64,000 nt of DNA from Escherichia coli (GTDB taxonomy: Bacteria; Pseudomonadota; Gammaproteobacteria; Enterobacterales; Enterobacteriaceae): assembly GCF_045037415.1 (NCBI RefSeq), contig NZ_CP173438.1. One strand, 5' to 3'. Every line of letters begins with the position of its first letter. The first letter of the stretch is position 1. Shown piece after piece: positions 54,301 to 57,300 of the stretch. A program made the position numbers.

Positions 54301-57300
54301 CTCCTTCAGAGGGGCCCACAACTCCATGGGTAAGCGTGAATCACGAAGCCGACCATGAATATACGCTAATTTTATTTTAAATGGACCGCATTGGGTTAAT
54401 TGATTATTATTTTTCCAAGTCACGACATGATGAATTGGCTCTTCACCATAAACAGAAACAGTTCCACTGAATTGACCAAATTCATTGAACCATCCTTCAA
54501 TGTGGTGATCTGCAAGATTGAATTCTTGCGGTGTAAAAAAAATTGATTCGCTAATTCTGTCAATGCACTCACCATCTTCCAGATAGTCTCTAAAACGAGC
54601 TATAATAGGAGGGTTTGAATCACTGTACATTGTGTTTGTAAAACCTAATAAAGCTTTTTCTAAGCGAGAAGACTGCTCTGATGTTTTATTGCTATCGCTC
54701 GTGGAAATGTCATCTATTAATATTTCTTCGGTAGGCATTATTATGAAGTGAGTTCCATGCCCATCTCCAGATAGTCTTAGCCCACCTAATTTTTTTTCCC
54801 ATAGAATAGGATCAAATTCAAAAGATGATAATTGTGTATTTATTTGTGATACTTTTGATTTTGATATTTTGTGTGATAAAGAGTCTAAATTATTTCTTGC
54901 TTGCTCAATCATCTCATCAAGAGTTTTTTTAGTGAAGCATTCGTCGTTGATAATAGTTCTAATTGGTATTTCTATATCATCAAGATCAAGTGATGGTATA
55001 GCAAATAAACTCCAATTAACAAATGCAGCAACTAATGGCTTAAGCTCATTGTCTCTTTTGGCCCTAGTAAGAACCAGCACCTGTGGTCCAATTGCTGCGA
55101 TAGATAAACGGCCTATTCCTTTCTCTCCCATGATAGGGCGAAAGGCTTTATTACTATCCACTGCTGGTTTATTAATTGCATCATCGTCGATTAATTTGCT
55201 GGAGGTTCCAATAGTCAACCACCTCTCTTCAAATTCATCGGTTGTCATACCTAATCCATCATCTCTCAAGATAAGAAGATTTTCTTTCCTAAAAAAATCA
55301 ACTTCGACATTATCAGCATAGGCATCATGAGCATTTTTAAATAACTCACTCAAGGCAGTAGGTATACCTGCAATTTGTTGTCTGCCAAGCATGTCCAAAG
55401 CTCGAGCCTTTGTTCTTATTTTAGCCATATATCTATGAATCCTTATTAGTACAATTTTCTATGAGATGTAGCCCAAATAGTCTAGCGAGTTCGCAAGGTA
55501 CAGCATTGCCGATTTGCTTTGCCATTGAATTCAGCGAACCTTTAAAAACATAGCTTAAAGGAAATGTTTGTAATCTTGATGCTTCTCTTATGCTAATTGC
55601 TCTATGTTGAGTGGGGTCAGGATGCCCAAAACGACCATTGGAGTAACTATTACATTTCGTCGTAAGTGTAGGCGCAGGCTTATCCCAACTCATTCTTCCA
55701 TAAGTATCTGTGTGGCCATCATAATTTTTATGGCATTTATTAACTAACTCTTCTGGCCAATTTCTTCTATCCCCTCCTTCTGGAGTGTGCATAATTCTTT
55801 TTAGGTTAAGAGGGCTCAGTGTTCCAGCCCTATGTAAAGGATCTTTGGGGTCGGTTTCTCCTGAACATAACTTTGTGAAGTCCTGGATATAATCTCGTAC
55901 AGTTTTGAATGGGATTTTATTTTTACCATGGGTTATCTCTGGTAGGGTAACTTTACCTACTCGACTAGCTAAGAGCACGAGTCTTTTTCTTCTTTGGGGA
56001 ATCCCATAGTTCTCAGCATTGGCTATAAAAGATATATAGTTATACTCTAACTCTTTAAGTAGCTTAATAAACTCCTGAAATGGGCCTTCTTTTTCTTCAT
56101 CAATTTTTTGCATTCCAGGAACATTTTCAAGCATAATATATTCAGGAAGAAGTTCTCTAATAAAACGATGAGTTTCATTTAGTAGATTTCTCCTTGAGTC
56201 GTCACTAGTTTTATTTTTATTCTGTTGCGAAAATGGTTGACATGGTGCACATGCACTCAGTAACAAAGGCCGTTTAGCTTTAATATCAATGATGTCGGAG
56301 ATATCTTGAGGTTCGATTTTCCTAATATCATCTTGGATGAATTTTGCATCAGGGAAATTAGCTTTAAATGTTTCTGATGCTTGTTGGTCAATATCTAATC
56401 CAAGCTCGATATCAAAGCCAGCCTGACGTAGCCCTTCACTGGCTCCACCACAGCCACAAAAAAAATCTATAACTATCAATTTGATACCTTCTTTGAACTA
56501 AATAAAACAACTCGAATAAGTTGATATTTTAAATAAAAATAATTGGTATGGATATGAACTTTGGTCACGCTACCGCCCTGAGGTCATGGCCATCCCCAGA
56601 CCTTTTAAAGGGATTATGAACAACACCCAGCCGACGTTCAACGGTGTTACCCATACATATCACAAAGTTAGTTAATTGGTTGGTCGTAAATTGACCTAAA
56701 ATGATTGAGGGCAATGCAAAAATCATTGGGAAATCAGGCGACACAGATGTTCGGAAGAGACTGAATGTTAAAAATATAGAATGTATATTCTCAAAAAAGA
56801 GATATTTCATTACATTTTATATGTGTATAGGAAAGTGAGATTGGCGAATCACCTCCCAATCATCCCGCCAGCGCTCCATTCAGCGCCACGCCAACCCTCA
56901 CTCCAGCCCACGTCATCGCCCCCAGCCAGAATGTCGGCAACACCAGAAACATCAACCTCATCACCAGATTGATAATCACGTCATCCTGCGTATTCTGGAT
57001 CCCGGCTAAATTCCTGCTACTGTGGGTATCGCTGTTGTAGAGCACATCCAGCAGCCAGCTATCAAGCCACCGTGCCAGTTCCCACCAAAAGGTGAGGAAA
57101 AATAGTGCAAACTGCACAAACGTCAGCGTCATCACTACTTTCACATCCCACGCCGAACAGAGCGTTATCAGCGGAATACAGATCACCAGCGCTATTTGCA
57201 GCTGCGCCTGTACCATCGGTAGTGCCTAACGCACGCTGTCGAATGCCGTACATGCCGCTATGCTGCCGAGGATATTTCTAGCGCCGGATGCCAACCGGGT

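Follow-up and report, generated by a model that had tools for sequence, protein, structure and literature searches.

A stretch of 64,000 nucleotides (nt) from Escherichia coli (NCBI RefSeq assembly GCF_045037415.1, contig NZ_CP173438.1), hereafter called the window, was analyzed around an exact copy of ops, the 12-nt signal that recruits the antitermination factor RfaH. The window is a uropathogenic E. coli (UPEC) pathogenicity island with pap, cnf1, hlyCABD and cdiBAI. The ops copy considered here ends a conserved 37-nt element in the leader of a three-gene operon headed by a DNA methyltransferase, and the leader follows the remnant of a traG gene from an integrative and conjugative element (ICE). 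The features of the locus are as follows.

56860-57621, minus strand: pseudogene of a TraG N-terminal domain (RefSeq), an ICE backbone gene remnant preceding the promoter-leader module
56642-56676, minus strand: conserved box just 5' of the -35 hexamer, ATTAACTAACTTTGTGATATGTATGGGTAACACCG, with two ATTAAC/GTAAC-like repeats
56613-56641, minus strand: predicted sigma-70 promoter, with -35 TTGAAC at 56641-56636, a 17-nt spacer and -10 CATAAT at 56618-56613
56566-56602, minus strand: conserved 37-nt element GGTCTGGGGATGGCCATGACCTCAGGGCGGTAGCGTG, with ops as its 3' end, defined by alignments and by covariance model R1
56566-56577, minus strand: ops 12-mer GGCGGTAGCGTG, an exact match on the non-template strand for the three-gene operon
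56480-56565, minus strand: cargo-specific part of the leader, 86 nt, with a Shine-Dalgarno-like GAAGG 7 nt before the TTG start
55433-56479, minus strand: C5 DNA cytosine methyltransferase (Dcm), 348 amino acids (aa), TTG start (RefSeq, TIGR00675, PADLOC)
52468-55428, minus strand: paraMORC/HEF_HK ATPase, 986 aa (Pfam, NCBIfam)
50787-52454, minus strand: Response_reg_2 protein, 555 aa (Pfam PF19192, 4e-29)

The ops site and the operon behind it

A preliminary description of this DNA had placed an exact ops on the minus strand about 85 nt 5' of a methyltransferase operon and had put the odds of such a chance match below 1 in 100. The site was recovered at 56566-56577, where it matches the ops consensus GGCGGTAGnnTG in full, with 86 nt from the last ops base to the TTG start and with ops and all three downstream genes on the same strand; the recomputed chance expectation for an exact match is 2 x 64000 / 4^12 = 0.008, in line with those odds. 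When both strands of the window were scanned, GGCGGTAGCGTG was found as a single exact copy. Three sites had no more than one mismatch to ops, against 0.16 expected from 100 dinucleotide shuffles, none of which reached three, and a chance origin of the match was ruled out by these shuffles together with the conservation described below. The site is intergenic in the RefSeq annotation. An 81-aa open reading frame (ORF; 56565-56810, minus strand) that runs across ops was considered as a coding sequence and judged non-coding, because its frame does not survive in E. coli A19, which has a 1-nt indel there, or in Buttiauxella, which has several. The two remaining sites are these.

44026-44037, minus strand: ops GGCGGTAGCATG in the hly leader, a separate and already known RfaH site
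16510-16521, minus strand: ops-like GGCGGTAGCGGG, in which T11 is replaced by G, the third one-mismatch site

The first of these had also been reported in the preliminary description and is present as given there. The annotated hlyC start is 622 nt downstream of it, in agreement with the published distance of about 600 nt in strain CFT073 (PMC9765446), and its flank (TTCTGGTCCCGG...CCGGAAG) is unlike both JUMPstart and the 37-nt element. The second falls in coding sequence, at the 5' end of a 359-aa fimbrial gene and overlapping the end of the usher gene, and the CFT073 data make loading of RfaH there unlikely.

The three genes span 5.7 kb, are separated by gaps of 4 and 13 nt, and have a guanine-plus-cytosine (GC) content of 26-40% (roughly 33%), compared with 47-56% in the flanks and roughly 50% in the host. 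The first product matches the TIGR00675 dcm family at 2e-48 and PADLOC MTase_II at 2e-95. The second has two GHKL ATPase domains, an N-terminal paraMORC/BbrUII-like HATPase_c_3 domain (Pfam E-value 1.5e-25) followed by HEF_HK (2.5e-11), and a C-terminal HATPase_c (5e-10). The third has a receiver-like Response_reg_2 domain at its N-terminus (4e-29) and an uncharacterized C-terminal region of about 350 aa; no PADLOC or NCBIfam family was assigned to it, and a sequence search of the PDB returned no relatives. HEF_HK / Response_reg_2 two-component-like systems linked to C5 methylases were described by Bellieny-Rabelo et al. 2021 (PMC8011034), and the operon in the window has exactly that architecture, including the C5 methylase upstream. 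It is thus a restriction-modification-associated paraMORC/HEF_HK system and not a virulence operon. Promoters and leaders were not treated in that work (PMC8011034), and among the HEF_HK systems compared here the ops element was found only in an E. coli/Buttiauxella/Rahnella-type sub-clade, with at least 59% ATPase identity.

The region from 50500 to 57300 of the window is identical in strain 4/0, and the operon and its leader are also present in UTI89, UM146 and S65EC. Across complete E. coli genomes the operon was found in 197 of 5426, including UTI89, UM146 and sequence type 131 (ST131) isolates. A 381-nt leader sequence was found in 194 E. coli genomes, always with the operon, and was at least 99% identical in 193 of them; in those copies, which come from diverse hosts and countries, the three ORFs, the promoter hexamers and ops are intact. 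Neither the module nor the operon was found in a plasmid collection, searched in both near and distant modes, or in viral contigs.

Farther upstream (56860-58207, minus strand), the traG pseudogene adjoins a remnant with a type VI secretion system (T6SS) VasL domain, and insertion sequence (IS) fragments also lie beyond it. At the 3' end of traG, UPEC carries a 43-nt deletion relative to A19 and Buttiauxella. In E. coli A19 (locus L002, 9490-18382; loci from the searches are denoted by L numbers), tssE, tssJ, tssG, tssF, a vgrG pseudogene and a pyocin/immunity pair lie 5' of the same junction. An origin of the leader as the 'ops2' of a T6SS accessory operon had been suspected from these A19 genes and from the RfaH-dependent ops of the Sci1 T6SS in enteroaggregative E. 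coli; it was rejected because in Buttiauxella and in Klebsiella-type loci the leader is contiguous with ICE traG, with no T6SS genes nearby. For comparison with the window from 57737-58207 onward, in CFT073 a VasL-domain gene stands beside a POTRA/ShlB-family gene, which fits the description of the RfaH-bound c4518-c4511 locus (Hustmyer et al.). No ops was found upstream of cdiB in strain 4/0 (L001). The sole above-threshold Rfam match in the window is AS-pc02 (RF02876, antisense to pHK01_099; 11883-12059, plus strand, 56.8 bits).

A conserved leader element with a sharp 3' boundary

Nine ICE-type sequences were aligned across the leader: the window, A19, Buttiauxella, L101, L109, L122, L123, L112 and L106. 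The numbers of invariant positions were as follows.

-35 TTGAAC: 6 of 6 invariant
17-nt spacer: 5 of 17 invariant
-10 CATAAT: 6 of 6 invariant
ops 12-mer: 10 of 12 invariant
60 nt upstream of the -35 hexamer: 4 of 60 invariant
40 nt after ops: 0 of 40 invariant across cargo types

In the 15 distinct elements collected, positions 1-9 of ops and T11 are invariant, and positions 10 and 12 vary. Mutagenesis of RfaH recruitment has shown that G4, G5, A7 and G8 are essential and that C3 and T6 are important, and that a G12C substitution still permits recruitment (Zuber 2018, PMC5995543). The invariant bases match this mutational map of RfaH requirements, and the pattern indicates that ops is under purifying selection.

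The conservation extends 5' of ops through the full 37-nt element, whose consensus is GGTCTG(G/T)GGATGGCC-N4-6-CCTC-N-GGGCGGTAGC-N-T, and stops at its 3' end. BLAST alignments between the window and the other loci run from inside traG through the leader and end at ops positions 9-12. The 86 nt of leader after ops are common only to the loci with the same operon, namely A19, Buttiauxella and L101. Covariance model R1, built from the 15 elements, gave a single match in the window (66.3 bits, 56563-56606) and scored the hly ops at 12.8 bits and the rfb JUMPstart at 12.6 bits, so that the hly and rfb sites share only the ops core with the element.

In ICE contexts the 37-nt element lies about 30 nt 3' of TTGAAC-17-CATAAT, a promoter that was called by a promoter scan in the window, in Buttiauxella and in one Klebsiella-type ICE. 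These positions would place the start of transcription near 56606, with ops at about +30 to +41 in a 5' untranslated region of 127 nt. The box upstream of the -35 hexamer is kept in eight of the nine ICE-type sequences, with ATTAACTAAnTTTGTGATnTGTATGGATTAACAT in most loci, and may be the site of an ICE or host regulator or an UP-like element. Promoter and terminator scans across the operon gave counts no different from those of shuffled sequences, and no terminator-like site was found between traG and the module in the Buttiauxella and Klebsiella-type ICE scans.

The RNA structure of the leader was also considered. A candidate hairpin, CUGGGG/CCUCAG, abuts ops and is paired in 94% of cells; its stem showed no compensatory change and was no better than in shuffles, and the folding of the whole 131-nt leader had no excess stability over shuffles (z = -0.5). 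At the DNA level an imperfect palindrome, TCTGGGGATGG/CCATGACCTCAGG with the centre ATGGCCAT, occupies 56577-56600 (minus strand) just 5' of ops, and its centre is disrupted in E. coli A19 (ATGGACAT).

The element resembles JUMPstart (Hobbs and Reeves 1994; RF01707) in length, with 37 against 39 nt, in the shared GGGCGGTAGC, and in a possible short hairpin with CUGG at its start and CAG at its end, directly 5' of ops. It differs in the sequence of its 5' half and in that it is not placed 5' of polysaccharide genes. The Rfam JUMPstart model gave no match in 56450-56700 at E<=10 (gathering threshold 35 bits), and the same model scored 61.3 bits on the galF-rfbB leader as a positive control; membership in JUMPstart was ruled out on this basis.

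The promoter-leader module in ICEs and its interchangeable cargo

The source of the leader was traced through relatives of the operon. A search of one genome per species returned Buttiauxella warmboldiae, which has a 94%-identical ATPase and in which the same leader, with ops again exact, comes after an intact traG that has ICE genes upstream. The Buttiauxella ATPase (L004, 6001-8960) is split into two ORFs (6001-7056 and 7119-8960) and is probably a pseudogene; the promoter-ops module beside it is intact. Among metagenomic sequences, the nearest relatives of the ATPase (L085, L086 and L089, at 61-66% and 59% identity) keep the three-gene operon, and L085 and L086 were assigned to Rahnella from their flanking genes. 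These relatives retain GGTCTGTGGATGGCC-N4-5-CCTC-N-GGGCGGTAGC ending in CTTT or CTTG in an otherwise unalignable leader. At about 51% identity, in Serratia, Lelliottia, Yersinia and Citrobacter, the element is missing, as it is in one Methylophaga relative. The preliminary description had proposed a search for ops in other genomes with the operon; such genomes carry the leader at 99% identity or more in 193 E. coli, the exact ops in Buttiauxella and its core in the 59-66% relatives.

Metagenome contigs were scanned with the pattern GGATGGCC-N3-8-CCTC-N-GGGCGGTAG, which gave 37 matches. Twenty-four were low-GC contigs with the full element; the other 13 were high-GC (GC >=0.60), had no flanking similarity to the module and were taken as chance matches. 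The module lies directly 3' of traG in ICEs of the PFGI-1/PAPI-1 class, recognized by TIGR03755/TIGR03756 and TraG_N (L004, L123 and L131-L134). Intact traG flanked by TIGR03755/TIGR03756 genes is present in Buttiauxella, L123 and L131-L134, and the window keeps only the traG pseudogene. The assembled isolates L131-L134 have, in order, TraC, TraU/TIGR03756, TIGR03755, an 85-aa gene, TraG_N, the module, 37 nt, and cargo beside dndBCDE, followed by ArdC, a TraI_2 relaxase and an integrase. There the module is the sole ops-like site in 22 kb, and the nearby transfer genes are without ops. An ICE of E. coli MS 16-3, with an 84%-identical traG and other restriction-modification cargo, does not have the module, which therefore marks an ICE sub-lineage and not the whole family.

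In every case the element has the orientation of the genes behind it and precedes a start codon by 20-220 nt. The genes that follow it differ from one locus to another and are associated with defence.

Window, A19, Buttiauxella and L101, 3' of ops: the Dcm / HEF_HK / Response_reg_2 operon
L109, 3' of ops: a GajA/PtuA-like AAA ATPase and a PD-Lambda-5_A protein (4e-72)
L106, 3' of ops: another C5 methylase with PD-Lambda-5_A-like and PDC-M53A proteins
L123, 3' of ops: a DGQHR protein and a weak CARF/HEPN-like protein
L122, 3' of ops: a DndB-like DGQHR protein
L099, L108, L111, L112 and L118, 3' of ops: BbrUII-like GHKL proteins of 770-788 aa and kinase-like proteins, with no methylase

Exact-sequence look-ups traced seven cargo proteins to isolates of Klebsiella, E. 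coli, Enterobacter, Salmonella, Citrobacter and Serratia. Every cargo protein traced to named isolates belongs to Enterobacterales, including Rahnella and Buttiauxella; that of L108 and two others were not traced. Enterobacterales are also the range of RfaH, and E. coli, like other members of the order, has rfaH among its core genes. In the Klebsiella-type ICEs (L131-L134, 13467-18521) the ops-driven DGQHR cargo lies head-to-tail against the dndBCDE phosphorothioation cluster on the opposite strand, an arrangement because of which the DGQHR genes may be a restriction partner of dndBCDE. In relatives of the window operon (L085-L089 and L091, Rahnella-type and others), an HNH_2 gene of about 250 aa is linked to the operon, either convergent downstream or divergent upstream, and is a candidate nuclease partner. 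No gene of about 250 aa is apparent alongside the UPEC copy, which is followed by IS fragments.

The preliminary description had suggested that the operon may have been wired into the virulence antitermination regulon of its host. That suggestion holds insofar as the ops is a real site in the right orientation, placed in a non-coding leader behind a conserved promoter-like site, and is under purifying selection. The remainder is not supported, as ops is ancestral to an ICE module that stands before unrelated defence cargo and the operon is associated with restriction-modification, not virulence. These comparisons indicate that ops was not wired in locally by UPEC but was inherited from the ICE module, which is distributed across Enterobacterales.

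Proposed control by RfaH and its alternatives

The 12-mer is, with good probability, a functional RfaH-loading site that ends a conserved promoter-leader module of about 80-130 nt. The module would have arisen on a family of enterobacterial ICEs, where it lies between traG and a variable cargo slot. Transcription would begin from the TTGAAC-17-CATAAT promoter, and read-through from traG is also possible. RNA polymerase would pause at U11 of ops, about 40 nt into the transcript, with GGCGGTAG exposed on the non-template strand. There host RfaH would bind, keep NusG off and travel with the polymerase, so that Rho termination and the pausing imposed by H-NS/StpA would be suppressed over the 5.7-kb, AT-rich operon and the distal genes could be expressed. 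Because homology between loci stops at ops, any cargo in the slot would be expected to inherit the same control. The start of transcription, the binding of RfaH, antitermination and the silencing of the operon by H-NS and Rho are what we infer from sequence; the idea that RfaH counters the loss of polymerase to H-NS/StpA and Rho is drawn by analogy with CFT073. The methyltransferase gene lies nearest the promoter, ahead of those for the ATPase and the receiver protein, and for this reason we hypothesize that, without RfaH, polarity would favour modification over the distal functions.

This proposal agrees with what has been reported for RfaH. In CFT073 each of the eight ops sites bound by RfaH lies in the leader of an H-NS-bound operon, on the non-template strand, at 40-67 nt from the start in the case of wzx, kps and rfa, and AT-rich foreign DNA is the class on which silencing by H-NS and Rho is relieved by RfaH (PMC9765446). 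Like the E. coli ops elements of waa/rfa, rfb/wzx, kps, hly, F tra and the T6SS loci reported in 2022-2025, the site has the identical 12-nt consensus on the non-template strand, in a 5' leader tens of nucleotides before the first gene of an AT-rich acquired operon (PMC9765446, PMC5995543). It differs from them in that the genes it precedes serve restriction-modification and anti-phage defence rather than envelope, toxin, pilus or secretion functions, and in having another conserved flank that is reused before interchangeable ICE cargo.

Several observations weigh against the proposal. CFT073, the strain with RfaH chromatin immunoprecipitation sequencing data, does not carry the operon, and at three genes and 5.7 kb the operon is shorter than classic RfaH targets. 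The first gene has the GAAGG Shine-Dalgarno, so that ribosome recruitment by RfaH is not obviously needed. Sister cargoes have ops variants that lack G12 (CATA, CATT, CATC and CTTT), and such variants should pause less (Zuber 2018, PMC5995543). No role has been assigned to the upstream half of the element, and the hairpin lacks covariation support. By analogy with four of the CFT073 ops loci, the promoter could also be H-NS-silenced under laboratory conditions.

Three other explanations were considered, each of them less well supported than loading of host RfaH. On IncX plasmids the plasmid-encoded RfaH paralogues PrfaH/ActX act on ops-like sites beside their own promoters (PMC11880322), and the module might similarly be read mainly by a NusG/RfaH paralogue encoded by its element, which would leave a nearly inactive orphan signal in the decayed UPEC island. 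Both cases have an ops-type signal just 3' of a promoter on a conjugative element (PMC11880322), such plasmid-borne paralogues are documented (PMC11880322), the module is native to a conjugative element, and the ICE in the window is reduced to a traG pseudogene. The IncX site serves transfer genes and a dedicated paralogue, whereas the module precedes cargo, and no NusG-like gene was seen within 10 kb on either side of it in L131-L134, in about 20 kb of ICE inspected. The ops core is moreover identical to the chromosomal E. coli consensus, so that host RfaH should load regardless, and the module, promoter and ORFs are conserved at 99% or more in about 194 E. coli genomes without the ICE. We consider a dedicated paralogue improbable.

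It is equally doubtful, in our judgment, that the 37-nt element is chiefly a boundary for recombination or cassette exchange, or a duplex-DNA operator for an ICE regulator, with only an incidental match to ops. The probability that nine invariant nucleotides at a fixed position match the ops core by chance is near 4^-9, the bases that do not vary are those that RfaH needs, and the element is always in the sense orientation and 20-220 nt from a start codon. The break in homology exactly at the 3' end of the element does speak for a boundary, and the upstream half (GGTCTGGGGATGGCC...CCTC), which contains the palindrome ATGGCCAT, is as conserved as ops and has no known role with RfaH. The palindrome is nevertheless broken in A19, no recombinase is linked to the site, and the roles of boundary and RfaH signal are not mutually exclusive. 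Lastly, ops could be a real but silent relic, in which the island promoter is inactive or H-NS-silenced, the operon is unexpressed and control by RfaH is without consequence in this host. The surrounding ICE and T6SS genes are pseudogenes and IS fragments, the ATPase of Buttiauxella is split, and four of the eight CFT073 ops loci are cryptic in rich medium. Intact ORFs, promoter hexamers and ops at 99% identity or more in at least 193 genomes would be unexpected for a dead locus in a decaying island, and we regard this explanation as unlikely as well.

A broader proposition follows the RfaH-loading interpretation and is held more tentatively, at a little less than an even chance: that an enterobacterial ICE lineage carries a fixed promoter-ops 'launch pad' in a cargo slot distal to traG, and that any anti-phage or restriction system landing there falls automatically under antitermination and H-NS counter-silencing by host RfaH. 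Full-text searches gave no paper, within the searchable literature, that connects RfaH or ops with methyltransferases, restriction-modification, defence systems or ICE cargo, and the RfaH targets in recent papers were capsule, lipopolysaccharide, toxin, adhesin, pilus and T6SS only. To our knowledge, the RfaH targets described so far are all operons for envelope, toxin, pilus, conjugation or secretion functions. What appears to be new here is the placement of the known ops signal within a distinct conserved element that is reused as a cargo-expression module of ICEs before anti-phage defence genes. The comparisons predict control of mobile defence genes by host RfaH, and such control is plausible. 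If it operates, the regulon of RfaH, which is known for regulating virulence and the envelope, would extend to mobile immunity through an ops module before interchangeable defence cargo, and AT-rich defence genes would have a mechanism to escape silencing by H-NS and Rho after transfer. The module would then be a compact, portable and host-range-restricted expression signal of about 80 nt. In UPEC, Klebsiella and Salmonella, phage resistance and DNA methylation would change with rfaH status, and in clinically important clones virulence regulation would be tied to phage resistance and to the epigenome.

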